Source of the DNA: Oscillospiraceae bacterium
Lineage (GTDB): Bacteria; Bacillota; Clostridia; UMGS1883
NCBI GenBank assembly: GCA_015068735.1
Contig: SVJW01000005.1
Coordinates: forward strand, 321-64,320
Length of the DNA stretch: 64,000 nucleotides
Reading direction: 5' to 3'
The stretch's first letter is position 1; each line of letters begins with the position of its first letter. Below are positions 1,042-26,445 of the stretch, piece by piece. Position numbers and translations under genes: made by a program. Below the pieces are notes generated by a model. It made no database searches. It had not been told where the DNA came from and was given only the letters and a program-made list of their open reading frames with translations.

Positions 1042-1308
1042 AAAAATACACTCCTTTTTAAAAAATGGTTGCAAAAACCCAAGGAGTGTAATATAATAAC
1101 GTTAGTTGGACGTTGAGGAACACTCCTTGACGTTGCCCTACAGTGTTGGCGCACTGTGGGGCTTTTATATTTTGTGTTATAAATTACATATTGCAATTTG
1201 CTTCTCCGAGCAGGGGGACTTTGATTTTCTTAAGTTCACTTGCCGGGATAAGATTATCATATTTCTTGCAGAGTTCTTTTATGGACTCTGCTTTTTTCTT
1301 TTTAGACA

Positions 1309-1962
1309 TTAAAATTCCACCTTACATTCTACTACTTTGCCGATAACTTCTATATATGTTTCTTTAGTATTATAAATTTGAATGTCATGTTTAGGATTGT
1401 ATGACTGAGGTATAAGCTGAACGATGTTACCTTCTTTTTTAAATCTTTTTACGGTAGCATCTTCTTTGTTTACCCTTACAACAGCGATTTCGCCGTTTTC
1501 AACCTCAGGTTGTCTTCGTACTATTATTGTGCTTCCATCACTTATCTGTGCAGCATTCATACTATCGCCTTTTACTCGCAAGGCGAAATATTCTGCTCCA
1601 CCGTTATGTTCTGTATATGTGTAGCCTTCTATATGTTCTTCTGCATATAAAGGAAGTCCTGCGGCAATACGACCAAGTATGGGGATCTCATGAATAATTG
1701 GATTGTAGGGAGTGCCGATGCTTTGATTGAAGGGAACAACATTAATATCTCGAAGATCTTCAGGAGAGATTCCCATGATTTCTAATGGAGAGACTTTCAA
1801 AACTTTTGCCAGCAAAGCAATTTTATCTCGTTTCATATTTTCTATATATCCAGTTTCCCATTTTTTTACTGTGCTTTTTCCAACACCAACGTATTTCCCA
1901 ACAGCTTCCAAAGTAAGTCCGAGTTCTTTACGCCTCTTTTCTATATCATAATTATTTGACAA
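1309..1962 (-). CDS. CI-like phage repressor (XRE HTH + S24 LexA-type autopeptidase)
   Basis: 217 aa. N-terminal HTH (LTLEAVGKYVGVGKSTVKKWE). C-terminal S24 motifs (RVKGDSM Ser nucleophile, ATVKRF Lys). TTG start 6 nt after GGAGGTG. Divergent from the cro-like gene. Confidence 0.9.
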   Translation of the reverse strand: MSNNYDIEKRRKELGLTLEAVGKYVGVGKSTVKKWETGYIENMKRDKIALLAKVLKVSPLEIMGISPEDLRDINVVPFNQSIGTPYNPIIHEIPILGRIAAGLPLYAEEHIEGYTYTEHNGGAEYFALRVKGDSMNAAQISDGSTIIVRRQPEVENGEIAVVRVNKEDATVKRFKKEGNIVQLIPQSYNPKHDIQIYNTKETYIEVIGKVVECKVEF

Positions 1963-1990
1963 CTATGACACCTCCTTATTCTTTATGATT

Positions 1991-2019
1991 AGTGTAACAT
2001 AAAAGTTTCGTTTATGCAA
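1991..2019 (-). promoter_or_regulatory. Candidate repressor promoter (TTGCAT-17-TACACT on minus strand)
   Basis: Minus strand -35 TTGCAT (2019-2014), 17-nt spacer, -10 TACACT (1996-1991), upstream of the CI TTG start. Confidence 0.45.
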
Positions 2020-2060
2020 CATATTTTTTAAAAAATACAAAAAAAGTTTCCAAAAAGGGA

Positions 2061-2089
2061 TTGACAGCCTTTAAAACGCGTGTTATACT
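2061..2089 (+). promoter_or_regulatory. Candidate early rightward promoter (TTGACA-17-TATACT)
   Basis: -35 TTGACA 2061-2066, 17-nt spacer, -10 TATACT 2084-2089, about 40 nt upstream of the cro-like ATG. Confidence 0.6.
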
Positions 2090-2091
2090 AA

Positions 2092-2109
2092 AAGTGTCCT
2101 AAAGGAAAC
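2092..2109 (+). promoter_or_regulatory. Operator-like repeat copy 1 (AAGTGTCCTAAAGGAAAC)
   Basis: 18-mer immediately after the -10. It recurs with 1 mismatch at 2328-2345. GTTTC/GAAAC half-sites also occur at 2005, 2046, 2341 and 2346. Confidence 0.4.
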
Positions 2110-2126
2110 AAAAGGAGGTGAATAAA

Positions 2127-2327
2127 ATGAAAAGTTGTTTGCTTAGAAGTAAAATTGTAGCAAAAGGAATGAAAATTGACCAGTTTTGCCGAGAGACAGG
2201 TATTAAAAAGACGTCACTCTACAGAAAACTTTCTGGGAAGACACAGTTTACTCGTGGCGAGATAGAACGTATCATTATTGAATTAGAACTTACTTCAGAA
2301 GAGATAATGGATATTTTTTTTGAATAG
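2127..2327 (+). CDS. Cro-like small HTH regulator
   Basis: 66 aa from ATG 2127 (AAAGGAGG 2111-2118). HTH-like KIDQFCRETGIKKTSLYRKLSG. Divergent from CI. Confidence 0.7.
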   Translation: MKSCLLRSKIVAKGMKIDQFCRETGIKKTSLYRKLSGKTQFTRGEIERIIIELELTSEEIMDIFFE

Positions 2328-2345
2328 AAGTGTCCTAAAAGAAAC
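2328..2345 (+). promoter_or_regulatory. Operator-like repeat copy 2 (AAGTGTCCTAAAAGAAAC)
   Basis: Direct repeat of 2092-2109, placed 1 nt after the cro-like stop. Followed by GAAACGAAACT, the reverse complement of AGTTTCGTTT at 2003-2012. Confidence 0.4.
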
Positions 2346-2627
2346 GAAACTGAAAATTGCACAAAATGAAACAGACCGATGTGCGAATCAGTCTGTTTGA
2401 GGGGTTACTTTGTGTTTTGTATCTTTTTTAATAAGTACGCTACTAAAAGACAGTTGCCATTACATAGAAACTTGCAGTTTAGGTGGCAAGGTCTAACTTC
2501 AGTAGACGCCATAGAGATAGGACACATGATTCCATTGTTCATATTGTTAACCTCCTTCCTTTAGGGCTTAACAATATTGTACCATAAATGAAACATTTAG
2601 TGGTGCACCGTAGAGGAGGTGATTGAG

Positions 2628-2816
2628 GTGAATGTAATAATTTTCGGGTTATGTCTTGTTTTTAGTTTGTTGTTTTTTTATTACTTGTTCCGTGAATTAA
2701 GCTTCGTGATAATCATTGTCTCTGCTTTGTGGGCATTCTTAGTTACATTGGTAGTGAAAGAATATTTGCCAATACTATTTTCAACCATGCAAGAATTGTT
2801 ACACCAAATAGAATAG
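2628..2816 (+). CDS. Small hydrophobic (2-TM) protein, hypothetical
   Basis: ORF 2619-2816. GGAGGTG lies at 2613-2619, so GTG 2628 is the better-spaced start. Very hydrophobic. Its 3' end overlaps the convergent gene 2743-3309, so one of the two calls may be wrong. Confidence 0.35.
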   Translation: MNVIIFGLCLVFSLLFFYYLFRELSFVIIIVSALWAFLVTLVVKEYLPILFSTMQELLHQIE

Positions 2817-3309
2817 CGAATACAAAGACAACGGTTTTGGCGAACAAGAATATAGCAGTAAAAATCCATTTTTCGTAAATATTTGCAAATTGATTATGAC
2901 GGATTCTGTATGACAATGTTCGTTTAGGATATCCTAACAAGCTACAAAGTCTGTTGCATCTGATATCTATGTAGCGGCACAACTCTTCATATGTATCTTG
3001 CCATACCTTTTCTTTTGATAGTCCTTCTCTGAGAAAATCTATGTGCTCACTTACGAAAAATGGAAGATATTCCGATTGGGAAAATGTGTTATCAATTTCA
3101 GACAGTAGCTTTTGTAGTTCTTCTACAGAAAGTTTCTTGTACAAAAAAGGAGAAAGAATCTTATACAAGGGGAAATATACATTTAAAAATAATTCTTTCT
3201 TGGTCGAAATTTGTACGGTCTTTATGATTACGGCAAAGCTGACTACAGTCACGATAATTGTTGTTAGAATTTCTAACATATTTGATTGGGTATTGCACAT
3301 AAAAATCAC
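2743..3309 (-). CDS. Hypothetical membrane protein, opposite orientation to early operon (moron candidate)
   Basis: 188 aa. N-terminal TM (LEILTTIIVTVVSFAVII) and two C-terminal TM segments. Start uncertain (GTG 3309 or ATG 3300). Confidence 0.55.
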   Translation of the reverse strand: MIFMCNTQSNMLEILTTIIVTVVSFAVIIKTVQISTKKELFLNVYFPLYKILSPFLYKKLSVEELQKLLSEIDNTFSQSEYLPFFVSEHIDFLREGLSKEKVWQDTYEELCRYIDIRCNRLCSLLGYPKRTLSYRIRHNQFANIYEKWIFTAIFLFAKTVVFVFAILFGVTILAWLKIVLANILSLPM

Positions 3310-3480
3310 AACCTTTCGGGACGATTATAACACAACTACATATTAAATACAAGGAGGTGATTATATTGAAAAAGTTTCTTAAGAAATAATAAAAAATGAC
3401 GGCGTAGCAGAAGCTACAACCGTCGCAAAAGTTTACAAACAAAGTATAACACAGATTAAAACAAAAAGCAAGTAGAAAGG

Positions 3481-3681
3481 ATGTTAATTATGGTAGATAA
3501 AAATAAATTACTCGCAACCAGAGATGTAATAATGTTTTTCTTAGGCAAGTCGGAATTAGATGCCGATGAATGTAAACAGGTACTTCAGATGTGTAACGAT
3601 GAGGTGGATGCAGCGGTAAGGCGTATGAGCATTACGGAAGTAAAGAGGGATGGTGATGACAGTGGCAAGGATTGCGATTAA
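3481..3681 (+). CDS. Hypothetical early protein
   Basis: 66-aa ORF, acidic C-terminus. ATG 3490 is better spaced from AAAGGA than ATG 3481. Confidence 0.45.
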   Translation: MLIMVDKNKLLATRDVIMFFLGKSELDADECKQVLQMCNDEVDAAVRRMSITEVKRDGDDSGKDCD

Positions 3682-3955
3682 GGACCTTAAAACCTGCCTA
3701 AGGATTTATTACACATATCCTGAAATCGGAAGTAAAGAGATAAAGGAACTTTTTGGAGTTGGTGACAATAAGGTTTGTAATCTTAAAAACCTTGTTCGTA
3801 AGGTACAAATCGAAAAAAACATAATGGTTCTGGATAAGCACAGTGTTAATACTGAAACTGCTTTTGAAGTGTGGGGTATTGACATAGGCGATATCGAGCG
3901 CAGGGTAAAGAAACTTGAGAAACTCGGGCTTTACGAAACGGAGGAAGCAGTATGA
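3650..3955 (+). CDS. Hypothetical early protein
   Basis: 101-aa ORF overlapping its neighbours in operon style. No recognisable motif. Confidence 0.5.
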   Translation: MVMTVARIAIKDLKTCLRIYYTYPEIGSKEIKELFGVGDNKVCNLKNLVRKVQIEKNIMVLDKHSVNTETAFEVWGIDIGDIERRVKKLEKLGLYETEEAV

Positions 3956-4116
3956 CTTGGTTATATATAACGGTAATGTGGTTTGCAGCATTGTTGGTAG
4001 CTGACGATATGGGGCTGGAGCATATCCACCCGGCAAAAGGTGTGTTTATTATTCTGGCACTTATCTACAATGTGGCATATACGATGTATAAATGGGAAAG
4101 GAAGTATAAAAGATGA
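3952..4116 (+). CDS. Small 2-TM membrane protein (54 aa), hypothetical
   Basis: Below the ORF-track cutoff. ATGA overlaps at both ends (3952-3955 and 4113-4116). MTWLYITVMWFAALLVADD...GVFIILALIYNVAYTMYKWERKYKR. Confidence 0.45.
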   Translation: MTWLYITVMWFAALLVADDMGLEHIHPAKGVFIILALIYNVAYTMYKWERKYKR

Positions 4117-4724
4117 AAAATTATATTTGTTTAGGTGGTAAGAAAATCGAACTTACAGCGGAGCAGGTTGCAGAGATGCAGAAATCGCTCGGGATAGGAC
4201 AGGTTAAGTTGAAAAACATTCCTATAGGGGAAACGTTTAAAGTTGGAGATTATGAGTTTGTTGTTCTTGATCGCTCGGAAGAAACAACAGCGGTTATTCT
4301 TAAAGATCTCTTACATAAAGAGAAGCAGTTCGGAAAGAACAATAACTTTGAAAACTCACATATTGATGAAATTTGCAAGAAGTTCAGTTGTGAGATTTCA
4401 GCGATAATTGGTGAAAACAATCTTATTGAACATACCGTGGACCTTACATCTGATGATGGTTTGAAAGACTACGGCAAAATCAAGAGAAAGATGTCTCTTC
4501 TTACAGCTAATCTCTATCGCCGTTACGTTGAAATACTGGACAAGCATAAAATAAAAGCTTGGTGGTGGTTGGCAACAGCATACAGTACGCCTACACATGA
4601 AAATGCTAACTGGGTAAAGTGCGTTTCGCCCGATGGTTGCATTTACAGCGGCTTCAATTACGACGGTACGTTTGGCGTTCGTCCGTTTTGTATCTTAAAT
4701 TCTAATATCTTTGTATCACGCTAA
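4113..4724 (+). CDS. DGR variable (target) protein 2; C-terminal lectin-like variable region (DUF6273-like architecture)
   Basis: 203 aa. C-terminus WWWLATAYSTP...CVSPDGCIYSGFNYDGTFGVRPF contains VR2. Paralog of the next gene. No signal peptide seen. Confidence 0.85.
   Translation: MKNYICLGGKKIELTAEQVAEMQKSLGIGQVKLKNIPIGETFKVGDYEFVVLDRSEETTAVILKDLLHKEKQFGKNNNFENSHIDEICKKFSCEISAIIGENNLIEHTVDLTSDDGLKDYGKIKRKMSLLTANLYRRYVEILDKHKIKAWWWLATAYSTPTHENANWVKCVSPDGCIYSGFNYDGTFGVRPFCILNSNIFVSR
4620..4686 (+). repeat. DGR variable repeat VR2
   Basis: 67 nt, collinear with TR 5677-5743. 13 substitutions, all at TR adenines. Confidence 0.9.
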
Positions 4725-4737
4725 GGAGGATAAAAAC

Positions 4738-5274
4738 ATGAAAGAAATGAAATTAACTGAAGTTATAAACGGTAAAACTTTTAAAATCGGTGATGTTGAG
4801 TTTATAAAGTTTTCCGAAGAAAACGGAGAAGTAACAGCTGTAGCAAAGGACATTGCTTTCCGTTCTCAGTTTGGAAAAAATAATAACCTCAAAGAGAGTT
4901 CGGTTCTCGAAAGACTTAAAAATGAATTCTTGCCGAAAATTGCAGAAGTTGTAGGTGAAGAAAATATCCTTGAACACAAAGTGGATTTAACAAGCCTTGA
5001 CGGGTTGAAAACATATGGAGATATGGTAAGTAAAATCAGTATTCCCACATTTGATTTTTACCGTGAGAACGTAAAGATTTTCGATGAATATAACCCTGAT
5101 ACCTGGTGGTGGCTTGCTACTCCCGATACAACACCGGAACATCTTAACGACTTCTGGTGCCGTTGCGTTTCGCCCGATGGTAACGTTAACTTCAGCAGCA
5201 ATTACGACGGTACGAATGGCGTTCGTCCGTTTTTGAAATTTGTATCTTCTATCTTTGTATCGGTTGAGGAATAA
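4738..5274 (+). CDS. DGR variable (target) protein 1
   Basis: 178 aa from ATG 4738 (AAGGAGG 4723-4729). C-terminus WWWLATPDTTP...CVSPDGNVNFSSNYDGTNGVRPF contains VR1. Confidence 0.9.
   Translation: MKEMKLTEVINGKTFKIGDVEFIKFSEENGEVTAVAKDIAFRSQFGKNNNLKESSVLERLKNEFLPKIAEVVGEENILEHKVDLTSLDGLKTYGDMVSKISIPTFDFYRENVKIFDEYNPDTWWWLATPDTTPEHLNDFWCRCVSPDGNVNFSSNYDGTNGVRPFLKFVSSIFVSVEE
5163..5230 (+). repeat. DGR variable repeat VR1
   Basis: 68 nt, collinear with TR 5676-5743. 8 substitutions, all at TR adenines. Confidence 0.9.
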
Positions 5275-5277
5275 AGT

Positions 5278-5646
5278 ATGGTTGACAAAGAACTGAAAGT
5301 TATTGTCAAAGCAAAAGAGTTAATGAAACATACGTATGTGCTTACATCCAATGCAAACAGATACCCGAAGAAGTTCAGACATTCTCTTGTGGATAGGATG
5401 CAGATTGTAAGTATGGATATATATGAGCTTTTGCTTGAATCTAATCGGATTAACAATAAAACCGAAAGATACTTCAGATGCGAGACAATAACAAAAGCTA
5501 TTATGAACTGCGATAAGCTTCAGACCTACATCGAATTATCAATGGAGTTGAAGTTACTGAATCCAAAATCGGCGGAGTATTGGTCGAAAATGGTGTCTGA
5601 TGTAAAGTTCATGTCTATAGCTTGGAGAACAGCTGAAAAGAAATAA
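5278..5646 (+). CDS. avd: DGR accessory variability determinant (Avd-like four-helix-bundle protein)
   Basis: 122 aa, basic and helical. Sits in the canonical position between target gene and TR. Resembles the Avd / 23S-rRNA-IVS protein family. Confidence 0.75.
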   Translation: MVDKELKVIVKAKELMKHTYVLTSNANRYPKKFRHSLVDRMQIVSMDIYELLLESNRINNKTERYFRCETITKAIMNCDKLQTYIELSMELKLLNPKSAEYWSKMVSDVKFMSIAWRTAEKK

Positions 5647-5675
5647 TCTATATAGGTTGTGCGTTGTATTTTTTC

Positions 5676-5743
5676 TTGCGTTTCGCCCGATGGTAACATT
5701 AACAACAACAACAATTACAACAATACGAATGGCGTTCGTCCGT
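5676..5743 (+). repeat. DGR template repeat (TR)
   Basis: TTGCGTTTCGCCCGATGGT AAC ATT AAC AAC AAC AAC AAT TAC AAC AAT ACG AAT GGCGTTCGTCCGT. Asn-codon-rich core with 21 adenines in 36 nt. Lies in the avd-RT spacer. Confidence 0.9.
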
Positions 5744-5850
5744 CCTGGTGGATTGTCAGACAGAGTAGGCATAAGCCGAAATCAGAGCACCACATCAAAA
5801 GAACGCACAACCTTTCTTTGAAAAAAGATAAACAAAGAGGATTATGTTGT

Positions 5851-6966
5851 ATGACCGATTTTGAGAAAGTAATTGATTTTAATAATATGTACCGTGCATA
5901 TCGCAGGTCGAAGTGTGGTAAAGGTTATAAAAGAAGTGCTGCACGGTTTAACATTATGGCTCTTGATGGCGTTAACGCTTTGATAGAGCAGTTAAAAAAC
6001 AAAACCTATAGAATATCTCCATACAATGAATTTACGGTTTATGAGCCGAAAGAACGTGTTATTAAGACAACATCTTTCAAGGATAAGGTCATACAGCATA
6101 GTTTATGTGATAATGTGATACTTCCCAAATTGCAGGAAATCTTTATTTTAGATAACTGTGCCGGGCAAAAAGGAAAAGGGACATTGTTTGGGCTTAACCG
6201 TCTGAGCAAGCAGATGAAAGCCTTTTATAAAAGATATGGACATAGTGGCTACATATTAAAGTGCGACATTTCGAAGTTCTTTTATAACATTTCTCATAGC
6301 CAACTGAAAGACATTGTTGAATATTATTTCTCTTATGACAGAGATATTTGTTGGTTGTGTAATCTGTTCATTGACAGCACAGAGGGGAAAGGAATTCCTT
6401 TAGGTAATCAGATAAACCAAGGCTTTGCTCTTTTATATTTAGACGGTATGGACAAGCTCATAACAGGCGAATTAGGTATAGAGTTTTACGGCCGTTATAT
6501 GGATGATTTCTATTTGATTCATCCGGATAAGCAATATCTGAAGCATTGCCTTGAAGTGGTAACGGAGTTCCTGCAAACGCTTGATTTGACTTTGAATGGG
6601 AAAACACAGATATTTCCCTTTAAAAACGGTGTAAGCTATCTTGGATTCCATACTTATGTAACGAACAGCGGAAAGGTAATACGAAAACTTAAAAACCAAA
6701 ACAAGAGAAATGCTCAGCGGAAGTTTTTAAAAATGGCAAAGTTAGTTGTTGCAGGTAGGCTTACGGAAGAAAAATTCTATGCTTCGTACAACGCTTGGAG
6801 AAATCACATATCACACGGCAATTGTTATAAATTAGGCAAACAGATGGATTTAAAAATAAATGAAATTTTGAAAGAGGTAAATAATATGGCTCAATATAAA
6901 ACTTGCCCTAATTGTGGTGCACATTTAGATCCGGGAGAAAAGTGTGATTGTGAGGAACCACCTTAA
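5851..6966 (+). CDS. DGR reverse transcriptase
   Basis: 371 aa from ATG 5851 (AAAGAGGA upstream). YMDD at 6496-6507. IPLGNQINQGFALLYL resembles the DGR-RT (I/L)GxxxSQ motif. C-terminal CPNCG...CDC Zn-ribbon tail. Confidence 0.9.
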   Translation: MTDFEKVIDFNNMYRAYRRSKCGKGYKRSAARFNIMALDGVNALIEQLKNKTYRISPYNEFTVYEPKERVIKTTSFKDKVIQHSLCDNVILPKLQEIFILDNCAGQKGKGTLFGLNRLSKQMKAFYKRYGHSGYILKCDISKFFYNISHSQLKDIVEYYFSYDRDICWLCNLFIDSTEGKGIPLGNQINQGFALLYLDGMDKLITGELGIEFYGRYMDDFYLIHPDKQYLKHCLEVVTEFLQTLDLTLNGKTQIFPFKNGVSYLGFHTYVTNSGKVIRKLKNQNKRNAQRKFLKMAKLVVAGRLTEEKFYASYNAWRNHISHGNCYKLGKQMDLKINEILKEVNNMAQYKTCPNCGAHLDPGEKCDCEEPP

Positions 6967-6982
6967 AAGGTAGGCGAAAGAA

Positions 6983-7399
6983 ATGGTACTCAGCTTAATG
7001 GATTTACCGCCTCGATATCGAGAACAGGCGGAAAGGCAGATTATTGAGAAAGAAAAAGCAAAAAAATCCAAGTACGGAAATGAAAAAGTAACTGTTAATG
7101 GCGTGCTTATTGACAGTAAGAAAGAAGCCCGACGGTATGAAGAGCTTATGGCGATGTTTGGGAAAGGTGAAATTGAAGATTTAAAGCTTCAGAATACATT
7201 TACCTTACAGAATGCATACACAACGCCTGAGGGCAAGCGAATAAGGGCTATAACATACAAAGCAGACTTTACATATTATAAGGACGGAAAATTCATTGTA
7301 GAGGATGTTAAGAGCCCTGTTACACGAAAGAAACCAGATTACAGGATGAAGGTCAAAATGATGCAGAATGTATTTAAGATAGAAGTTGTGGAGGTATAA
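6983..7399 (+). CDS. DUF1064-type phage protein (nuclease-like fold)
   Basis: 138 aa. KYGNEKVTVNGVLIDSKKEARRYEEL...YKADFTYY...VEDVKS matches the pattern I recall for DUF1064. Confidence 0.65.
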   Translation: MVLSLMDLPPRYREQAERQIIEKEKAKKSKYGNEKVTVNGVLIDSKKEARRYEELMAMFGKGEIEDLKLQNTFTLQNAYTTPEGKRIRAITYKADFTYYKDGKFIVEDVKSPVTRKKPDYRMKVKMMQNVFKIEVVEV

Positions 7400-7402
7400 A
7401 CG

Positions 7403-7576
7403 ATGAGAAAATGTAAGGTGTGCGGAATGGTCTTTGACGGTGACACAAGATACACAGAAATAAAGGGCGACAGTTACTGTGAGGATTGCATCCGTGAGAT
7501 GGACACAACTGATTTGCTTGAACTTCTTGATATTGAATTCACCTGCATTGGGTTTCCGGAACCTGAAAGATGTTAA
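7403..7576 (+). CDS. Small Zn-ribbon protein (57 aa)
   Basis: Below the ORF-track cutoff. MRKCKVCGMVFDGDTRYTEIKGDSYCEDCIREM... with CxxC...CxxC. Confidence 0.45.
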   Translation: MRKCKVCGMVFDGDTRYTEIKGDSYCEDCIREMDTTDLLELLDIEFTCIGFPEPERC

Positions 7577-7591
7577 GAAAGGATAATTTAT

Positions 7592-8266
7592 ATGAAAGAG
7601 AATAAAGCATTTAAAGATATGACCTTTGAAGATTTTTCAAAGGTCGATGTTACACCACATTGTGATAAACGCAAAGCAAAAGATGACAAGGGTAAAGAAA
7701 TAGAGGTTTTATACCTTAACTGGGCGAAGTGCAAACAGATTCTTCATGATTTGGGCGCACAGAAAGTATACTTTGAGCCTGTAACTGGGGCTGACGGTTC
7801 TTCTCTTATAAAAAGTGATGCTGTGTTTACAGATAAAAACGGAGTTTCGAACAGATGTTATGAGGTTAGAGTGAAAATCGTTGTTGACGACCTGGAATTT
7901 GAAAGTCAGTTTCCTCTTATGAACGGCTCCAATCCCGTAAAGGATAATTCTCTTACTCAGCAGAGACTGTGGAATGCTCAGACAAGAGCTTTTGTAAAGG
8001 GTGTAGCTATTCATATTGGTTTGGGATTCTCTTTATGGTTGTCTGACTATGAAGGGATGGAAGATACAGACGATTTAAGTTTCCACAGCCTTACGAAAGT
8101 TAGACAGCGATTTGAGGAAACATATTCTTCTAAGCTTAGATTGGGACTAAGTGCAGCAGAGATTGCAAAAGCTTTAAGTATGACGGTAGATGAAGTAAAA
8201 GCGATATTTGCGAACTTCGATACTCTTATTAGATTCGAAGAAAACCTCAAGGCAATAAAGGTATGA
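7592..8266 (+). CDS. Single-strand annealing protein, Sak/DUF1071 (Rad52-like)
   Basis: 224 aa. YLNWAKCKQIL, FPLMNGSNP and RAFVKGVAIHIGLGFSLW match the DUF1071/Sak pattern. Followed by the exonuclease partner. Confidence 0.7.
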   Translation: MKENKAFKDMTFEDFSKVDVTPHCDKRKAKDDKGKEIEVLYLNWAKCKQILHDLGAQKVYFEPVTGADGSSLIKSDAVFTDKNGVSNRCYEVRVKIVVDDLEFESQFPLMNGSNPVKDNSLTQQRLWNAQTRAFVKGVAIHIGLGFSLWLSDYEGMEDTDDLSFHSLTKVRQRFEETYSSKLRLGLSAAEIAKALSMTVDEVKAIFANFDTLIRFEENLKAIKV

Positions 8267-8823
8267 TAGCAGATAATGACAGAAGCGGTTATTTCGGAGC
8301 AAGTGACACACCGTACATAATCGGGAACACAGAAACAAAGAGCTTTGAAAAATGGTGGCTTGAAAAGTGCGGAATACTTCGCAACACCTTCATCAATGAT
8401 GCTATGTGCGCAGGAACGCATTACGAACATAAAATCCTTGAACATATAGGCGTTGAAAATATGGACAGGCAGATTATCATTGAGGATTTGAAGCTTCGGG
8501 TTAATCTTGATGGGGATATGAATCGGAAGATATACGAGGTTAAAACATACAAGCGCGAGAACGGATTTAAAGTACCTAAGAGGTATGTTAATCAGGTTAA
8601 TGTTCAAATGTTTGCTACAGGCTTCAGAAGTGCTGATATTGTTGCATACGGACTTACCGAGTATGATTATAGGAATTACTTCAACCCGATAGATGATGAG
8701 AGGTTATCCTTTCACCCGGTAGAGTATGACGAACGGTGGATAAACAATATATATCTTCCGAGGTTAGAGTACTTTGCAGAATGCTTGAAGAAAGGAGTAA
8801 TGCCAAGATGTTTGAAGCAGTAG
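8263..8823 (+). CDS. YqaJ-like PD-(D/E)XK recombination exonuclease
   Basis: 186 aa. GASDTPYIIG, GTHYEHKILE and DGD...YEVKT motifs. ATGA overlap with the annealase gene. Confidence 0.7.
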   Translation: MIADNDRSGYFGASDTPYIIGNTETKSFEKWWLEKCGILRNTFINDAMCAGTHYEHKILEHIGVENMDRQIIIEDLKLRVNLDGDMNRKIYEVKTYKRENGFKVPKRYVNQVNVQMFATGFRSADIVAYGLTEYDYRNYFNPIDDERLSFHPVEYDERWINNIYLPRLEYFAECLKKGVMPRCLKQ

Positions 8824-9446
8824 GTGAAATATATAAAGTCAAGGACGGCCGTGCAATTATAGTTGCTGACATAGACCCTTACAAGGCAGAACGGCAGGAA
8901 ATAAAAAGTTGCTTAGTTCGGTATGATGACGGACGACATATATCAGCTGATCAGAGACGAAAAATATACGCCACAATTGCGGACATAGCAGAATATACCG
9001 GTAATGCTCCTGAAATGGAAAAGGCTTTGCAGAAATTCTTTTACATAGAGCGGTACGGGGTGGATTATTTCAGCCTTTCAAATTGTACTGTGACAGAAGC
9101 AAGAGAGTTTATCAACTATCTTATAGACTTCTGCTTTGAGAATAATATCGGAACCCGGGACACTCTTTTGAATCGTACCGATGACATAAGCAGATATTTG
9201 TATTCTTGTCTCATAAATCGTAAATGTGCGGTATGTAATCAGAGGGCAGATATTCATCATTGCGAGGGTTCGCGTATCGGTATGGGTTTCAACCGCCGTA
9301 AGGTAAACAATATCGGAAGATTTGCTATAGCTCTTTGTCGAAAGTGTCACAGTATTGCACATAACGATGAAAAAGGATTCTTTGAAAGAAATCATATCTA
9401 CGGTGTACAGCTTGATGCATATGCCGTAAAGAAATTAAAACTGTGA
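8808..9446 (+). CDS. Phage protein with C-terminal HNH-like Cys/His motif (DUF968-like)
   Basis: 212 aa from ATG 8808 (AAAGGAG 8791-8797). CAVCNQRADIHHC...ALCRKCHSIAHND. Confidence 0.5.
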   Translation: MFEAVGEIYKVKDGRAIIVADIDPYKAERQEIKSCLVRYDDGRHISADQRRKIYATIADIAEYTGNAPEMEKALQKFFYIERYGVDYFSLSNCTVTEAREFINYLIDFCFENNIGTRDTLLNRTDDISRYLYSCLINRKCAVCNQRADIHHCEGSRIGMGFNRRKVNNIGRFAIALCRKCHSIAHNDEKGFFERNHIYGVQLDAYAVKKLKL

Positions 9447-9455
9447 GGTGGTTTT

Positions 9456-9677
9456 ATGAAGAAACCGACACAATGCGAAAGAATTATACAGTATATGAAA
9501 GATTTCGGAAGTATAACAACGCTACAAGCATTTACGGATTTGGGCTGTACGAGACTTGCAAGTAGGGTTAATGATTTAAGGAATCAAGGCTATGACATAA
9601 AGAGCGAATTTGTTTCAGGGAAGAACAGATATGATGAAACGGTGAGCTACAAAAAGTATTATTTAGGAGAGATTTAA
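9456..9677 (+). CDS. Small winged-helix/HTH phage protein
   Basis: 73 aa. CERIIQYMKDFGSITTLQAFTDLGCTRLASRVNDLRNQGYDI is typical of small phage wHTH proteins. Confidence 0.6.
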   Translation: MKKPTQCERIIQYMKDFGSITTLQAFTDLGCTRLASRVNDLRNQGYDIKSEFVSGKNRYDETVSYKKYYLGEI

Positions 9678-9682
9678 ATTGT

Positions 9683-10528
9683 ATGGAAGAGGTAAAGTGG
9701 ATAAAAATTCACGTTAATATGTTTTCAAACAGAAAGATAAAATTGATACGTTCTATGAAAAACGGAGATAGTTTTGTACTTCTGTGGACGATGCTTCTTA
9801 CTGCTGCCGGTCGATGTAATGCTGATGGGAAATTATACATAGCGGATGGCGTTCCTTATACAGAGGATATGTTTGCTACAGAGTTCGATATGAAGGTTTC
9901 TATTGTCAGAGATGCATTGCAAGAATTTGAGAAATTCAAGATGATTTCCCGAATTGATGGGGTTTATTGCGTTCTCGGTTGGAGCGAATATCAAAATATA
10001 GAAGGCATGGATAAGATAAGAGAACAGACGCGAAAACGCGTTGAGAAGTACCGCGACAAGAAAGAAATTGCAATAAAGGACAACGTTACTTGTAACGCTA
10101 AAGTAACTCCGTGTAACGTTACAAGTAACGTTACGGTAACGCAATGTAACGCAACAGATATAGAAATAGATAAAGAAGAAAGAAATAAGAATATATTATC
10201 TACTACTATTAAGGCGTACGAGAAGCATATTGGAGCAATTACCGAAGTGACAGCTGAAGCTATTTCGGAGTGGCTTGAAAAAGGTGCTGACTCTTCGCTT
10301 ATTATATTTGCCTTTGAACAGGCGGTGGAATATAACGCAAGAAGTTGGAAATATGCTGAGAAAATTATAAGCACACATTTTAATGCCGGGCGAAAAACAA
10401 GAACGGCTGCTGAAAACTTCGGAAAGAAAAAGACCGACAAGAAAAAAAGCGGTTCATATGAGCCTGACGATATGGCGGCTATGGAACGAAAAATGAGACT
10501 TGAAAGGATGAAAAATAATGCTGAATAA
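9683..10528 (+). CDS. Phage replisome organizer (N-terminal rep-organizer domain + DnaD-like C-terminus)
   Basis: 281 aa. WIKIHVNMFSNRKIKLIRSMKNGDSFVLLWTMLLTAAGRCNADGKLY. The C-terminal part resembles a DnaD domain. Confidence 0.8.
   Translation: MEEVKWIKIHVNMFSNRKIKLIRSMKNGDSFVLLWTMLLTAAGRCNADGKLYIADGVPYTEDMFATEFDMKVSIVRDALQEFEKFKMISRIDGVYCVLGWSEYQNIEGMDKIREQTRKRVEKYRDKKEIAIKDNVTCNAKVTPCNVTSNVTVTQCNATDIEIDKEERNKNILSTTIKAYEKHIGAITEVTAEAISEWLEKGADSSLIIFAFEQAVEYNARSWKYAEKIISTHFNAGRKTRTAAENFGKKKTDKKKSGSYEPDDMAAMERKMRLERMKNNAE
10081..10155 (+). repeat. GTAACG iteron cluster inside the replisome-organizer gene (candidate phage ori)
   Basis: CAACGTTACTTGTAACGCTAAAGTAACTCCGTGTAACGTTACAAGTAACGTTACGGTAACGCAATGTAACGCAAC: at least 7 GTAAC(G) units in both orientations within 75 bp. 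Confidence 0.5.
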
Positions 10529-10907
10529 AGTAATTTTAATGGGTCGGCTTACACGTGACCCGGAACTCAGAAGCACACCGCAGGGAGTAAGCACCTGCAG
10601 TTTCTCATTGGCAGTAGACCGTAGCTTTGTCCGTGAAGGAGAAGAACGCAAAGCGGATTTTATAAACTGCGTTGCGTGGAGACAGACCGCGGAGTTTATT
10701 TCTAAATACTTCAAGAAAGGAAATATGGTTGCTCTTGAGGGGAGCATTCAAACTCGCTCTTGGGACGATCAGGACGGAAAGAAGCATTATGTAACTGAGG
10801 TTATTGTAAGTCAGGTATATTTTGCCGAGGGGAAGAGAGAATCCGAAGACGCTCCGGCAGAAATAGATATGGGTGATGATGACGATTTGCCATTCTCTGT
10901 GAGGTGA
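10518..10907 (+). CDS. ssb: Single-stranded DNA-binding protein
   Basis: 129 aa. MLNKVILMGRLTRDPELR OB-fold signature and acidic C-terminal DDDDLPF tip. Confidence 0.9.
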   Translation: MLNKVILMGRLTRDPELRSTPQGVSTCSFSLAVDRSFVREGEERKADFINCVAWRQTAEFISKYFKKGNMVALEGSIQTRSWDDQDGKKHYVTEVIVSQVYFAEGKRESEDAPAEIDMGDDDDLPFSVR

Positions 10908-10911
10908 CGGG

Positions 10912-12822
10912 ATGAGTTTATTTGTAGATAACTTTGCTGGTGGCGGTGGTGCTTCCACCGGAATTGAAATGGCAATAGGCAGAAGTGTGGATATAGCAAT
11001 CAATCACGACCCTGATGCTATAGCAATGCACAAAGCGAATCATCCTAACACACGTCATTACTGTGAAAGTGTGTGGGAAGTAGACCCTGAAGAAGCCTGT
11101 GAGGGTGAAGAAGTTGCTCTTGCCTGGTTCTCTCCCGATTGCACACACTTCTCAAGAGCAAAGGGTGGCAAGCCTGTAGATAAGAATATCAGAGGTCTTG
11201 CGTGGGTAACTATCAAATGGGCGTATGCAGTAAGACCAAAAGTAATAATGCTTGAGAATGTTCCCGAAATACAGACGTGGGGACCACTTGACAATAACGG
11301 AAAACCTATAAAAGAGCGTAGCGGAGAAACTTTCAACGGATTTATTGCCGTGCTTACTACAGGATTATCCAAAGAACACCCCGCATTTATTGAGATGTGT
11401 GCTGCACTTGAAATTGATGTTTATTCACGTATGGCTTCTGAGCTTTCAAACGGATTGGGATATGATGTGGATTTCAGAATACTCCGTTCCTGTGATTACG
11501 GTGCGCCTACAACGCGTACACGGTTTTACATGATTGCAAGAAGTGACGGTAGAAAGATTGTATGGCCTGAACCTACACATGCGCCAAAGGACAGTATAGA
11601 GGTCAGATGCGGTATGCTTCAACCTTACAGAACAGCAGCGGAGTGTATTGATTGGAGTATTCCTACACAGAGTATTTTTGAAAGGGATAAACCTCTTGCG
11701 GAAAATACTCTTAAGCGAATTGCAAGAGGTATAAAGAAGTTTGTAATTGATAATCCTGAACCGTTTATTATTCATTATAAGTTTGATAATGAGCCAGAAA
11801 GTGTTAATAAGCCACTTTCTACAGTTACATCAGTAAACAGCCATTATGTGGTAACCCCTACGATTATGTGTAACAATACAGGGAATGTAGGAGCGAGCGC
11901 AGATTCTCCATTGCCGACTGTAACAACCGGAAACAGAAATTTTGTAGTCGCACCTTCAATAGTTCCCGTAGGGTATGGCGAAAGGAAAGGACAGAAACCA
12001 AGAGTGAGCGATATAGAAGAGCCGTTAAGCACGGTGGTAGGAAGCAGTAAGCATTATCTTACAATGCCAATACTCACTACCTTTAACCAAAATAGTAGTG
12101 GACAGATAATAGATAGACCCATTGATACTGTTATGGCAGGTGCGACAAGATTTGGTCTTATATCACCTACCCTTATTCAGTATCACAGTGAACAGAATGA
12201 GGGCGAAGTAAGAGGGCAAGAACTCACAGAACCAATAATGACAATTGACACAAATCCCAGGTATGCCTTATCGGTAGCACACATTATGAAAAATTACGGA
12301 GGTAATTATAAGGGCGCAGGAAGTTCAGTGGATAAGCCTCTCGATACAGTAACGGCAAAAGACCATAACGAGCTTGTAACTGCTCATATAGTAACGCTTC
12401 GGAATAATATGGACGGTCAGCCTATGGATGAACCTTTGACAACAATATCCTGTAGCGGAGCACACCACGCAGAAGTAGAAGCTTTTCTTGTAAAGTATTT
12501 TTCTACTGGTTCACCGAAACCTATAGATGCACCTCTTGATACGCTGACTACAAAGGACAGATATGCTTTGGTAACTATTCATGGAGAAGATTATATCATT
12601 GTTGATATTCGTATGAGAATGCTTCAGCCAAGAGAATTATTTAACGCGCAGGGATTCCCAAAGGATTACATAATCGAACACGATCCGGAAGGAAACCCAT
12701 ACCCGAAGACAAAGCAGGTAGCGAGATGTGGCAATGCGGTTACTCCTCCTGTGCCGGCGGCTATGGTAAGAGTTAATCTACCTGAATACTGTGAAGAAAT
12801 ACAAAAGGTGGTGACAACATGA
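10912..12822 (+). CDS. DNA (cytosine-5) methyltransferase with expanded repeat-containing variable region
   Basis: 636 aa. Motif I FAGGGGASTG, motif IV SPDCTHFS, motif VI ENV, motif IX QPRELFNAQGFP, motif X GNAV. No cognate endonuclease nearby. Confidence 0.9.
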   Translation: MSLFVDNFAGGGGASTGIEMAIGRSVDIAINHDPDAIAMHKANHPNTRHYCESVWEVDPEEACEGEEVALAWFSPDCTHFSRAKGGKPVDKNIRGLAWVTIKWAYAVRPKVIMLENVPEIQTWGPLDNNGKPIKERSGETFNGFIAVLTTGLSKEHPAFIEMCAALEIDVYSRMASELSNGLGYDVDFRILRSCDYGAPTTRTRFYMIARSDGRKIVWPEPTHAPKDSIEVRCGMLQPYRTAAECIDWSIPTQSIFERDKPLAENTLKRIARGIKKFVIDNPEPFIIHYKFDNEPESVNKPLSTVTSVNSHYVVTPTIMCNNTGNVGASADSPLPTVTTGNRNFVVAPSIVPVGYGERKGQKPRVSDIEEPLSTVVGSSKHYLTMPILTTFNQNSSGQIIDRPIDTVMAGATRFGLISPTLIQYHSEQNEGEVRGQELTEPIMTIDTNPRYALSVAHIMKNYGGNYKGAGSSVDKPLDTVTAKDHNELVTAHIVTLRNNMDGQPMDEPLTTISCSGAHHAEVEAFLVKYFSTGSPKPIDAPLDTLTTKDRYALVTIHGEDYIIVDIRMRMLQPRELFNAQGFPKDYIIEHDPEGNPYPKTKQVARCGNAVTPPVPAAMVRVNLPEYCEEIQKVVTT

Positions 12823-13508
12823 GGAAATGCGAATACTGTGGTAAAGAGTTTGAGCCGAAGCAAAGCAGAAGTAAATATTGTAGCAGGGAATGTCAGGTAA
12901 AAGGTTTTCATGCAAGCAGACCAAAAGGGGAAACAAAGAAGTGCAAGTGGTGCGGAAAAGAATTTTTTGCACCACATAAGGGGATAAAATATTGCAGTCT
13001 TCTTTGTAAGATGAAAGCAGCGGATGAGCAACGTACTATAATTGCGGAGCAGAAGAAACAAGAGAAGAAACCTATCAAGTGTAAACATTGTGGAGCTGAG
13101 TTCGTTCCACGGCATAAAAGGCAAATATTTTGTTGCGAACAATGCGGATATGAATATCGTTATGAACATACTCCCAAAAAGAAATCGAAAGGAATAAGGG
13201 AATACAACTCCCGAATTTGCGCGATTTGCGGTAAGGAGTTTGTTCCGAGTAATTCAATACAGAAATATTGTTCAAAAGAATGTAGTCGCAAAGCTCAATA
13301 TAGTAAAAACAAGAAAGAAATCGTTGTAAACTCAGAAAGACCCAAGAAGAAAACTGCAAAAATATCTCCTGCGTCACAATGGTTTGCAAAGATGTCTTTG
13401 CGTGAGATTTCAGAAGAGTGTGCAAGGTTACATATTAGCTATGGCAAAGCTTCTTTGATGGCGATGAATAATATGTTGCCTGAGGATTTTGGAAAGAGGT
13501 GTAAATAG
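12819..13508 (+). CDS. Zn-ribbon repeat protein (4 x CxxCGxxFxP...YCSxxC), hypothetical
   Basis: 229 aa. Four tandem copies of about 45 aa of the CxxC...C(S)xxC module, then a helical C-terminus. Confidence 0.6.
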   Translation: MRKCEYCGKEFEPKQSRSKYCSRECQVKGFHASRPKGETKKCKWCGKEFFAPHKGIKYCSLLCKMKAADEQRTIIAEQKKQEKKPIKCKHCGAEFVPRHKRQIFCCEQCGYEYRYEHTPKKKSKGIREYNSRICAICGKEFVPSNSIQKYCSKECSRKAQYSKNKKEIVVNSERPKKKTAKISPASQWFAKMSLREISEECARLHISYGKASLMAMNNMLPEDFGKRCK

Positions 13509-13729
13509 TGGCGCAGAAAACAGAAATTGTGTGTGACAGATGCGGCAAGGATATAGTAAATCCTATGAAATGCTATTGCCCCACATATGCCTTAAAGAAT
13601 TATTCAGCAAAGATAACGCTGTGGCCCGTAGGAGAACCGAGAAGTAGTTTCGGACAGAGAGTAGACCTGTGTCCTGAATGTTACGAAGCGTTTGTAAACT
13701 TTATGGACGGAGGTGTAACCAATGACTGA
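13508..13729 (+). CDS. Small Zn-ribbon protein, hypothetical
   Basis: 73 aa. CDRCG...CPECYE. GTG start overlapping the previous stop. Confidence 0.5.
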   Translation: MAQKTEIVCDRCGKDIVNPMKCYCPTYALKNYSAKITLWPVGEPRSSFGQRVDLCPECYEAFVNFMDGGVTND

Positions 13730-14117
13730 ACTTGAAATGTTGGAAGCTGAAAAGTACTGGTGTGAAAATTGCTGTAACTGGGATAAAGAAAATTTGCTTC
13801 CAGACGGATATGCCAACTGCAAAGTAACCGGAACACTTTGCTTCGCCCAGGAAAGCGGAAAAGAATGCAAGTGCTTTAACGTACCGGCAGAGAATGTAAT
13901 TGTACTGCCTTGTAAGGTGGGTGATGTGGTGTATGTGATACGATATGCACCAATAAGTCAACGGTATTACATAAAAGAAATCATCGCAAAAGTTATTATC
14001 AGCATAAACGAGTATTTTTACTTAGAAGATGACGGCAAAAAGTTTATGTTTGGAGAAAAAGCTTTTGCATCCAAAGAAGAAGCAGAAGCGAAGCTGAAAG
14101 AAGGTGTGCAGGGGTGA
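13722..14117 (+). CDS. Cys-rich hypothetical protein
   Basis: 131-aa ORF in operon register. No recognised motif. Confidence 0.5.
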   Translation: MTELEMLEAEKYWCENCCNWDKENLLPDGYANCKVTGTLCFAQESGKECKCFNVPAENVIVLPCKVGDVVYVIRYAPISQRYYIKEIIAKVIISINEYFYLEDDGKKFMFGEKAFASKEEAEAKLKEGVQG

Positions 14118-14127
14118 ATTATAGATA

Positions 14128-19110: not shown

Positions 19111-19225
19111 AAGTAAAGGCAGGCATATAGGGTAACCTATGTGCCTGCTGTTTTTTTGTGGGGCACCGATACTTGAAAAAGATATGATATAATAAATCTA
19201 TGAAACACAGAGAGGAGCCGAAAAT

Positions 19226-20128
19226 ATGGAAGGCAATTCAATGGAGCTTAATATTCAGAGATTCGCAGAGGGCGGTTCTGATGGTACAAGCTCGAGCGGA
19301 AACGCGACAGTCGCTCAGTCGCAGTCGGGCGTAGAAGCGGAAGGTAATTCCGCAAATGTTCCTGTCGCCGGGGAGCAGAAAGAAAATCATTCCGCAATCG
19401 ATTTAAGCGCATATTCGGAGGAGCAACTCGAGGAGCTCATCGAGAAGAATCCTAATCTGAACAAAACTATGGGAAAAAAGTTTTCAGGTGCGTTTGGAAA
19501 AAGACTTGCGGAAGAAAGGTCAAAAATACAGGAAGAAATGAAACCTGTAAACGACCTTATTTACAAATTAATGGCAACACACAACGTTAACAGCTTTGAG
19601 GATCTTGCCAAAGTGTTAGACCCTTCTATGATTGAAACGTTTTCTATCGAAAACGGAACAGGAGAAAAAATTAGCCGAGAAATTATAGGAGTCAGAGCAG
19701 ATAACATCCGCAAAAACATTGAAGAAAAAGCGGCTAAAAAGTATCAAGACGAAATCGAAAGAAGGCGGTTTGTCGAACAAAAAACACGGGAAATGGATGA
19801 AGACATAAAACGCACAAAAGAAATTTATCCTAATTTTGACCCCAATGTCGAGATTAAAAATCCCGAATTCGGCAAATTGTTGAAAGCAGGCGTACCGGTA
19901 GAACACGCGTACAAGGTTCTTCATATGGATGAAATTGTTGAAGCTGCCAAGAAAGATACTGCAGCGGCATATGCGAAAAGCACAGCGCAGATGCAGGCAA
20001 GACCCAGTGAAAACGGTCTTGGTAATCAGGTAGCTGTTAACGGCTCGATGGATGTATCAAAGCTCACAAAGAAGGAACGCGCGGAGCTTGCAAAGAGAGC
20101 ACAGCGCGGTGAAACTATTACGTTCTGA
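19226..20128 (+). CDS. Scaffolding-like protein
   Basis: 300 aa. Acidic and coiled-coil-like, immediately upstream of the capsid gene. N-terminal MELNIQRFAEGG motif is shared with the capsid protein. Confidence 0.6.
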   Translation: MEGNSMELNIQRFAEGGSDGTSSSGNATVAQSQSGVEAEGNSANVPVAGEQKENHSAIDLSAYSEEQLEELIEKNPNLNKTMGKKFSGAFGKRLAEERSKIQEEMKPVNDLIYKLMATHNVNSFEDLAKVLDPSMIETFSIENGTGEKISREIIGVRADNIRKNIEEKAAKKYQDEIERRRFVEQKTREMDEDIKRTKEIYPNFDPNVEIKNPEFGKLLKAGVPVEHAYKVLHMDEIVEAAKKDTAAAYAKSTAQMQARPSENGLGNQVAVNGSMDVSKLTKKERAELAKRAQRGETITF

Positions 20129-20198
20129 AGAACGTAACGAAGGTGAGATAATGAGAATTATCACTTAGTAAAACGAAATGAAAAGGATGTGAAAAATT

Positions 20199-21224: not shown

Positions 21225-21250
21225 TGATGTAACGGAAGGAGCTGGAAACA

Positions 21251-21580
21251 ATGGCCAGAAAGAACAATACTGAAAATGTGGAAACTACGGTGGTAGAAAA
21301 CGTTGCAAAAGAAGCTACTGTAGAAGAAGCTACTGTAAAAAATACCAAGTCTGAAAAGAAAATGGTTGAAATTGAGCTGTTCAAGGACAACAAGGACTAT
21401 AAGGACGATGTTTTCGTTTGTATCAACGGCAAAAACATTGTTGTAAAGCGCGGTGAAAAGGTCGAGATTCCCGAGGCTTACGCAAAGGTTATTGCACAGT
21501 CCAAAAAACAGGACAATGCAGCGGCTGACCTTATGGCATCCAAGCAGGATGAGTACCGTAAGGAAGCGGCAAAGCACTAA
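21251..21580 (+). CDS. Hypothetical head-associated protein
   Basis: 109-aa ORF directly after the capsid gene and before a hairpin terminator. Confidence 0.5.
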   Translation: MARKNNTENVETTVVENVAKEATVEEATVKNTKSEKKMVEIELFKDNKDYKDDVFVCINGKNIVVKRGEKVEIPEAYAKVIAQSKKQDNAAADLMASKQDEYRKEAAKH

Positions 21581-21592
21581 TAAAAACACCGC

Positions 21593-21625: not shown

Positions 21626-21649
21626 GTATATAAGAAAGGAAGAAGAAAT

Positions 21650-22182: not shown

Positions 22183-22195
22183 AGAGGGTGAAGTT

Positions 22196-26434: not shown

Positions 26435-26445
26435 GAGTGAGATAA

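Follow-up and report, generated by a model that had tools for sequence, protein, structure and literature searches.

Anatomy of the retroelement

The stretch of DNA analysed here (the window) comprises 64 kb of contig SVJW01000005.1 from an Oscillospiraceae bacterium and includes a prophage. Positions 4113-6966 of the window are, with near certainty, a complete diversity-generating retroelement (DGR), in which the genes of two target proteins, T1 and T2, are followed by a gene for an Avd-like protein, a template repeat (TR) and a reverse transcriptase (RT). Each target gene includes a variable repeat (VR1 and VR2, respectively). The features of the element, with lengths in nucleotides (nt) or amino acids (aa), are as follows.

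4113-4724, + strand: T1, 203 aa, a stand-alone DUF6273 protein whose start codon shares an ATGA with the stop codon of a 54-aa open reading frame (ORF)
4620-4686, + strand: VR1, with 13 differences from TR, every one at a TR adenine
4738-5274, + strand: T2, 178 aa from its ATG; a TTG at 4711 would make it 187 aa
5164-5230, + strand: VR2, with 8 differences from TR, every one at a TR adenine
5278-5646, + strand: Avd-like gene, 122 aa, of a size and position that fit Avd
5677-5743, + strand: TR, 67 nt with 22 adenines, then a 107-nt spacer to the RT start
5851-6966, + strand: RT, 371 aa, with a YMDD box (Pfam RVT_1, E = 3.7e-14)

The three repeats, which start at 4620, 5164 and 5677, make up a family of direct repeats with three members in the window. 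Over 67 nt, all 21 mismatches between TR and the two VRs fall on TR adenines and none on other bases, a pattern whose probability by chance is, by our own arithmetic, about (22/67)^21, or ~7e-11. The 36-nt core of TR (AAC ATT AAC AAC AAC AAC AAT TAC AAC AAT ACG AAT) holds 21 adenines in 12 codons; the 22nd adenine, in a GAT upstream of the core, is the same in both VRs. With nine AAC/AAT codons that can each specify 15 amino acids and three codons that can each specify 4, we calculate a coding capacity of ~2.5e12 variants per target. VR1 encodes the C-terminus of T1, CVSPDG-CIYSGFNYDGTF-GVRP, and the variable residues of VR2 are T2 149-160. The composition of the core is that given in the original prediction, which had been made from the same DNA. 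The length it assigned to TR, 68 bp, is not: homology stops at ...CCGTTTT in the VRs and ...CCGTCCT in TR, so TR is 67 nt long. Both VRs finish in GGCGTTCGTCCGTTTT and TR in GGCGTTCGTCCGTCCT, which is predicted from the sequence to be a 3' difference of the IMH versus IMH* type (IMH, initiation of mutagenic homing).

The conserved 3' end of the repeats (GGCGTTCGTCCGT) has no further good match in the 64 kb window, and thus T1 and T2 are the sole targets here. A remote third VR among the structural genes was considered and rejected, as none was found in the window. The anatomy is thus as originally proposed: the DGR is complete, lies in the non-structural arm and has no targets in the window other than two small paralogs that lack a signal peptide. 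A hairpin or cruciform downstream of the VR is the target recognition element of the BPP-1 type, which is not universal among DGRs; no inverted repeat of at least 7 nt was found within ~50 nt downstream of either VR, the nearest being a 7-nt pair 52 nt past VR2. Nor does the TR-spacer RNA have a significant special fold (z-score -1.3).

The Avd-like protein matches NCBIfam DivGenRetAVD (E = 2.8e-11; 43.6 bits, under the curated cut-off of 80) and Pfam bAvd (E = 4e-5; 24.5 bits, under the curated cut-off of 40), and its gene is kept at the same position in 91 related loci. With the RT, the group II intron, retron and Drt models remain a long way short of their cut-offs. The RT reading frame is open upstream through the entire TR to a GTG at 5659, which would add an N-terminal CVSPDGNINNNNNYNNTNGVRP extension.

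The target proteins

T1 and T2 are stand-alone DUF6273 (C-lectin-like) proteins with the VR at the C-terminus. As originally described, they are tandem paralogs (203 and 178 aa), with 45% identity between the ORFs, and have in common the motifs FGKNNN, VDLTS.DGLK.YG, WWWLAT and CVSPDG...GVRPF. T2 is preceded by a strong AAGGAGG ribosome-binding site. The Pfam family DUF6273 (PF19789; gathering cut-off 23.5 bits) matches T1 with 23.8 bits and T2 with 28.8 bits, the alignment being limited in both to the C-terminal third of the profile, and PHROG 9958, of unknown function, spans the full length of T1 (E = 8e-39) and T2 (E = 3.6e-35). A Kyte-Doolittle scan found no hydrophobic segment, signal peptide or transmembrane (TM) segment in either protein, again in keeping with the original description; the maximal 19-residue means are 0.65 for T1 and 0.85 for T2. 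A cryptic signal peptide or lipobox at the start of T1 ('MKNYICLGG') was considered and rejected: the sequence lacks a hydrophobic h-region, and homologs do not conserve the Cys. No effector domain was found in T1 or T2, and the PADLOC and NCBIfam defence families returned no match to T1, to T2 or to the small ORFs nearby.

The AlphaFold2 model of T2 is a single globule (predicted local distance difference test, pLDDT, 91; predicted template modelling score, pTM, 0.88), in which strands 150-153 and 159-162 form a β-hairpin that bears the 12 variable residues (149-160). The model of T1 (mean pLDDT 76.5) has a T2-like fold, with an additional conserved N-terminal β-hairpin plus helix of 28 aa that is also present in the homolog consensus. 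A C-type-lectin/FGE-like fold displaying the 12 variable residues had been expected at the outset; in the models the fold is that of DUF6273 (C-lectin-like), and the variable residues lie on the C-terminal β-hairpin. In a Foldseek search with T2, the best match in the PDB is 9qa6, an IgA peptidase of Thomasclavelia ramosa (E = 3.1e-4, probability 1.00; TM-score 0.59 normalised to the query; 14% sequence identity), whose N-terminal domain is a DUF6273. Classical C-type lectins (CD94, CD23) are weak among the matches, and a PDB sequence search with the T2 family profile gave a chance match only. Structural matches in BFVD are gut-phage DUF6273 proteins of 163-748 aa, with E down to 5.7e-9 and top TM-scores of ~0.6-0.75.

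These properties bear on the possibility that T1 and T2 are accessory proteins of the virion, serving as adhesins or in receptor binding. They would then have the task of Mtd, the BPP-1 target, or of the published 'tgt2' proteins, though encoded outside the late operon, and would dock on the tail or capsid after synthesis, so that the DGR would switch host or glycan specificity. The DUF6273 fold is used by Hoc-like proteins, by tentaclins and in tail-fibre fusions, the VR regions of both proteins match PHROG 10993 ('Hoc-like head decoration'), and the strong ribosome-binding site of T2 would also fit a virion component. The structures argue the other way: nothing like the β-prism or β-sandwich of Mtd or the immunoglobulin (Ig) anchor of tentaclins is found in T1 or T2, and the Foldseek PDB matches of T2 include none that is Mtd-like. 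T2 has no N-terminal docking domain, and T1 adds just its 28-aa hairpin plus helix, a conserved element that could dock.

The protein family

In a 90%-clustered protein database T2 has 1681 homologs and T1 3901, and the best 120 of each are all 164-247 aa long. A profile search of 50% identity representatives gave 1254 clusters. Among the best 150 of these (E < 1e-29), almost all proteins measure 170-275 aa, with main size classes of ~175 aa (T2-type) and ~203 aa (T1-type), together with about six two-domain proteins of 267-411 aa and a few that have short N-terminal extensions. A large N-terminal domain or a tail-fibre fusion occurs in none of these 150 clusters. In the N-terminally extended homologs (235-320 aa) the extensions are short and mutually unrelated; that they are tail-fibre domains was ruled out, and some resemble fused upstream ORFs (one a helix-turn-helix, HTH, and one a TM peptide). 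The original prediction had named close homologs fused to tail-fibre N-terminal domains as an observation that would speak against it; close homologs are not fused in this way.

The two-domain homologs are tandem DUF6273-DUF6273 fusions with a VR-like end on each half. Four of them, P0130, P0153, P0172 and P0260, are natural single-chain DUF6273 pairs of 355-411 aa. Such fusions give a weak hint, in the fashion of a Rosetta stone, that T1 and T2 might act together. The orthologs of T1 and of T2 are each nearest to their own type, and thus the duplication is old. Across more than 1000 clusters the protein backbone is strongly conserved.

Placement of the cassette in related prophages

In the window, T1 starts 1.8 kb downstream of the end of a cro-like gene (2327), and the cassette precedes the recombination and replication genes and lies several kb before the first structural gene, just as the original prediction had placed it. 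A survey of related prophages, which had been suggested at the same time, covered 39 IMG/VR loci and 78 loci from GTDB species-representative genomes, with several contigs added by exact protein look-up; all ORFs were clustered and the common neighbours annotated. Loci whose RTs are at least 95% identical were joined, which reduced 99 loci to 86 dereplicated cassettes. The hosts are Oscillospiraceae, Acutalibacteraceae, Faecousia, Congzhengia and other gut Clostridia, represented by metagenome-assembled genomes from humans and ruminants. The order T1-type, T2-type, Avd, RT is conserved across the loci, and 66 of the 86 cassettes have two tandem targets. The genes on either side of the cassettes were counted by class.

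Lysogeny genes (integrase, cI, ImmA): upstream in 46/86, downstream in 2/86
Packaging genes (terminase small and large subunits, TerS and TerL; portal, ClpP, head) on the same strand: upstream in 0/86, downstream in 29/86
Replication/recombination genes: upstream in 29/86, downstream in 28/86

Not one of the 86 cassettes lies inside the structural module. The median distance from the RT to the first packaging gene is 2.6 kb (99 loci, before dereplication). Neighbours were annotated as SSB, NinB/Orf, replication initiation protein, ParB, methylases and TerS/TerL, and no gene immediately upstream of the cassette is conserved across the loci. The virion genes downstream vary, with three TerL families and with portals of either the P22 type or the HK97 type, the latter with ClpP. 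The gene-class counts thus define two slots, one right after the lysogeny switch, as in the window, and the other after the replication genes and before the terminase. Both slots belong to the DNA-metabolism arm, and the cassette changes between them as a unit. We conclude, with near certainty, that non-structural placement is a property of the whole lineage, as the 86 dereplicated cassettes attest.

Three loci, L120 (9380-11128), L048 and L092, have a T1-T2 pair in the same early position with neither Avd nor RT. In L120 the pair is followed by an unrelated 178-aa ORF and then by AAA_24, DUF3799 and SSB genes. Targets can thus be retained where the diversifying machinery is absent.

For a virion-associated accessory role, the many cassettes located 1-3 kb upstream of TerS/TerL are what one might expect. 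The same survey supplies evidence that argues against it, namely structural-gene linkage in 0 of 86 cassettes, three TerL and two portal families and hence no conserved virion partner, and a cassette that shifts as a unit between two slots of the DNA-metabolism arm. Together with the considerations of fold given above, we regard this role as a serious possibility, albeit one that we are inclined to doubt.

Comparison with known retroelements

The DGR of BPP-1 (mtd-avd-TR-brt) is similar in comprising a target with a 3' VR, Avd, TR and RT, in its adenine-only differences, in the location of the VR at the C-terminus of a lectin-like fold, and in TR and VR 3' ends that can be told apart. However, Mtd is a protein of 381 aa with N-terminal docking domains, encoded at the end of the tail operon, whereas the two targets described here, 203 and 178 aa long, lack a docking domain and are encoded in the early/replication arm; there is also no inverted repeat downstream of the VRs and no detectable structural match to Mtd. 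T1 and T2 are thus not of the Mtd type, having neither its docking domains nor its placement in a tail or late module. They are not tentaclins either, since they have no Ig-like domains and end right after the VR.

Small DGR targets that consist of DUF6273 only have been published, namely nd4_tgt2 and nd12_tgt2 (PMC10743442), those of Lelie and CP11 (PMC11792537) and Toutatis gp24 (bioRxiv 10.1101/2024.10.15.618418). Like T1 and T2, these are single-domain proteins with a C-terminal VR on a β-hairpin, and they are homologous over their full length: by tblastn, nd4_tgt2, nd12_tgt2, Lelie orf58 and Toutatis gp24 are 28-33% identical to T2 over 92-100% of its length, and the published proteins align with both T1 and T2. 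These distant relatives likewise lie in the non-structural arm. Toutatis gp24 and Lelie orf58 are found between DNA methylases and a replication initiator plus antiterminator, and nd4_tgt2 between lysis genes and exonuclease, SSB and DnaC genes. The authors either proposed receptor binding, as for nd4 and nd12 (PMC10743442), which favours a virion-associated role for T1 and T2 as well, or made no commitment as to function, and they did not comment on the non-structural location. The published systems differ from ours in that the small protein is a second target, the first being a large tentaclin or Hoc-like protein, and in that the small target of Toutatis lies ~17 kb from its TR. Here, the entire DGR stands beside the small proteins, which form a tandem pair, and there is no structural target in the window.

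A second DGR target of Quimbyvirus (ORF 80, also given as ORF 84 in the paper) is non-structural and lies among defence-related genes, and a role in phage-host conflict has been proposed for it (Benler et al. 2021, PMC8008677). As far as its description goes, this phage DGR target shares with T1 and T2 a C-lectin domain and a location outside the structural module, near methyltransferases and nucleases. In contrast to them, it belongs to another phage family, with a Bacteroidetes host, and its DGR also has a structural target, the non-structural one being remote and on the opposite strand. Non-structural viral DGR targets are also mentioned in passing by Roux et al. (PMC8144416). The putative cytoplasmic antigen sensors, diversified by DGRs, that have been proposed in multicellular bacteria (PMC10907252) similarly have a signal-less C-lectin variable domain and belong to intracellular conflict systems, but they are cellular, multi-domain proteins with effector or NTPase modules, whereas T1 and T2 are phage-encoded and single-domain. 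The remark in the original prediction that a diversified intracellular phage protein was not known to have been described overrates the novelty, given the non-structural target of Quimbyvirus (PMC8008677) and the proposed cytoplasmic sensors (PMC10907252). In the IgA peptidase 9qa6, DUF6273 is a domain of a secreted, sortase-anchored 137-kDa protease, and is not diversified by a DGR (PMC12402451).

Thus, the mechanism of DGRs, the fold of the targets, small DUF6273 targets and a non-structural phage DGR target are all known already. What appears to be new is a large and very common lineage in which the DGR serves only a tandem pair in the early/replication arm; targeted literature searches returned no description of this cassette lineage or of its placement.

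Activity of the retroelement

VR1 is identical in eight contigs from several samples, that is, in all contigs with a window-identical T2 that cover T1; the identity of VR2 in these contigs is by selection, as they were picked on identical T2. T1 and T2 each form a one-member cluster at 90%. In a sister lineage, the 14 proteins of the 90% cluster of P0118 hardly differ in backbone but are completely different in their VR residues, a pattern which, judged from the sequences, is the expected signature of DGR turnover. That TR and the two VRs never differ at a base other than a TR adenine argues for a recent last homing event, with no drift since.

If the cassette were a decaying or silent relic, the targets would be functionless now and the VR differences historical. 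Such an account could draw on the presence in the protein database of only one VR1 and one VR2 variant of this exact phage (16-17 contigs), on the lack of a recognisable terminase and portal in the prophage, and on those relatives in which T1 and T2 occur without Avd or RT. It is countered by the fact that every ORF is intact, by the complete agreement of TR with both VRs outside adenines, by the strongly conserved backbone in more than 1000 clusters and by the active VR turnover in sister lineages. We consider a relic highly improbable.

The surrounding prophage

The other landmarks of the prophage are listed below.

1309-1962, - strand: cI/LexA-like repressor (HTH plus S24 peptidase; NCBIfam lexA-type, E = 8.5e-28), which marks the lysogeny switch
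2061-2089, + strand: candidate early rightward promoter, TTGACA-17-TATACT with an extended TG, 11/12 matches
2118-2327, + strand: cro-like small HTH gene, the first gene in the rightward (lytic) direction
20199-21224: major head protein, related to those of the Bacillus podophages Pony and Page
26446-27180: amidase

The candidate promoter is the best sigma-70-like match between 1200 and 8000 in a consensus scan and is located just upstream of cro. Behind it, the + strand genes from 3481 to 14117 are tightly packed or overlapping: two small ORFs, the 54-aa ORF, T1, T2, Avd, TR and RT are followed by DUF1064, a Sak-like annealing protein, a YqaJ exonuclease, an HNH nuclease, a replisome organiser, SSB and a C5 methylase. 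The integrase of the window lies to the left of the repressor and runs off the window edge. Two other contigs, L121 and L122, match the window at 3481-7000 with 99.9-100% identity, and both have a 382-aa integrase directly left of the repressor gene; the cro homolog of L121 gives a weak HTH_26 match and has the same divergent layout with the repressor. From integrase to cassette, the genes of L121 and L122 are the same in size and order. The host genes that flank the integrase on its left are PALP, dCMP deaminase and ProRS in L121 and a PocR/AraC regulator in L122, a difference that suggests two integration sites or two hosts. A megablast search of window 1300-20000 against GenBank phages found no near-identical phage.

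This layout is relevant to the question of whether T1 and T2 might be expressed from the prophage in lysogens, in the manner of morons, and serve the host or the prophage, for example by sensing or blocking superinfecting phages as hypervariable intracellular proteins, or by being released in vesicles. T1 and T2 run in the direction of cro and the replication genes, against that of cI and the integrase, so that repression in lysogens is expected, and the promoter scan of the window gave no strong match directly before T1. In some loci, on the other hand, T1 is preceded by a gap of 130-240 nt that could hold its own promoter. There are precedents, in that the DGR-targeted tentaclin of the Mushu prophage is reported to be expressed in lysogens and found in the bacterial secretome without phage particles (preprint 10.64898/2026.05.08.723808), and in that cytoplasmic DGR-diversified sensors have been proposed in bacteria (PMC10907252). 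As there is no effector domain, no conserved partner gene and no PADLOC match, expression for the benefit of the lysogen seems improbable to us.

Terminase and portal were not identified in this prophage (window 13500-27200). Directly upstream of the scaffold-like and major head genes is a 1660-aa ORF with a TTG start (14128-19110, + strand), which has no match in Pfam, PHROG or PDB sequence searches; among the fetched loci, only a 1577-aa ORF in L117 is related to it, with 30% identity over ~780 aa. In L013, L061 and L075, which have homologous p300 and head genes, the place of this ORF is taken by TerS, TerL and a P22-type portal. A 918-aa protein of the structural region has an internal-virion-protein-like C-terminus. 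The prophage may be defective, or a satellite, or equipped with very divergent packaging proteins.

Several further genes deserve mention. A 188-aa protein encoded between cro and the early operon (2743-3309, - strand), which has a hydrophobic segment at either terminus, has the appearance of a moron or of a superinfection-exclusion-type insert, and a hairpin lies at 2369-2398; the protein has no Pfam, NCBIfam or PADLOC family match. The 54-aa ORF before T1 (3952-4116, + strand) has two moderately hydrophobic stretches and ATGA overlaps with both of its neighbours, and L120 has a counterpart of the same size in the same position; in a distant homolog, P0174, an N-terminal TM peptide is fused before a T1-like domain. 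The 54-aa ORF was considered as a conserved membrane partner of T1, an idea that was rejected because the upstream gene varies by locus (methylases, ParB, HNH, unknowns). The C5 cytosine methylase (10912-12822, + strand) is unusually long at 636 aa, its Pfam domain being matched in three stretches, and it is followed by a 229-aa protein of repeated CxxC...CxxC zinc-ribbon units (12819-13508, + strand) with many PHROG matches, including HNH endonuclease and NinG/Rap-type families.

What the targets may bind

The absence of a docking domain, the absence of structural linkage, the association with several virion types, the self-contained nature of the unit and its co-orientation with cro argue for soluble binders with a ligand that is independent of the virion. 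The reading we favour, with a confidence that is evenly balanced and on the strength of sequence analysis, is that T1 and T2 may be free hypervariable binders rather than built-in parts of a tail fibre.

Several considerations weigh against this reading. To our knowledge, the phage DGR targets that have been studied experimentally (Mtd) are all receptor-binding, and most of the predicted ones are tail proteins. Being released by lysis, virion proteins can do without a signal peptide, and therefore its lack is no argument against association with the virion. The N-terminal hairpin plus helix of T1, as modelled, could be a docking element. In the 29 cassettes that precede the terminase by ~1-3 kb, the proximity makes co-transcription with the late genes possible. 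The surveyed loci hold 10 kb on each side, so that a remote structural target in the relatives could be missed. Moreover, the invariance of VR1 means that no ongoing VR turnover is visible in this exact phage. Lastly, DUF6273 occurs elsewhere in tentaclins and Hoc-like proteins, in a tail-fibre fusion of Pioen and in a secreted IgA peptidase (PMC10743442, PMC11792537, PMC12402451).

If T1 and T2 are free binders, the system might operate as follows. By analogy with BPP-1, TR RNA would be copied by the RT together with Avd, with adenines being misread, and the cDNA would replace the last 67 nt-equivalent of both target genes, the 3' ends of TR and VR directing homing. T1 and T2 would be transcribed in the same direction as cro and the genes for replication, would be synthesised in the cytoplasm in the course of lytic growth, and may act as a pair. 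Their ligand would lie outside the architecture of the virion, for example a molecule of the host or of a competing element, and they would act inside the cell or after lysis. In this scheme, it is the timing of expression, the homing mechanism, the non-virion status and the ligand that we infer. A more specific version is that temperate phages of gut Clostridia employ a dedicated DGR to hypermutate a cytoplasmic, lytic-cycle pair of lectin-fold proteins against host defence or rival-element proteins, that is, as an anticipatory, antibody-like counter-defence instead of a switch of tropism; we put this forward as a conjecture that is more probably wrong than right.

Phage DGRs are understood almost entirely through tail-fibre tropism switching. 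The lineage described here is large, with more than 1200 protein clusters at 50% identity and at least 78 loci in species-representative genomes of gut Clostridia, and its distant relatives in cultured Faecalibacterium phages (Toutatis, Lelie) make virion status and expression timing directly testable. If the targets are indeed not virion proteins, the published small 'tgt2' targets would need re-interpretation, and phage DGRs would have a second, unexplored use in phage-host or phage-phage conflict.

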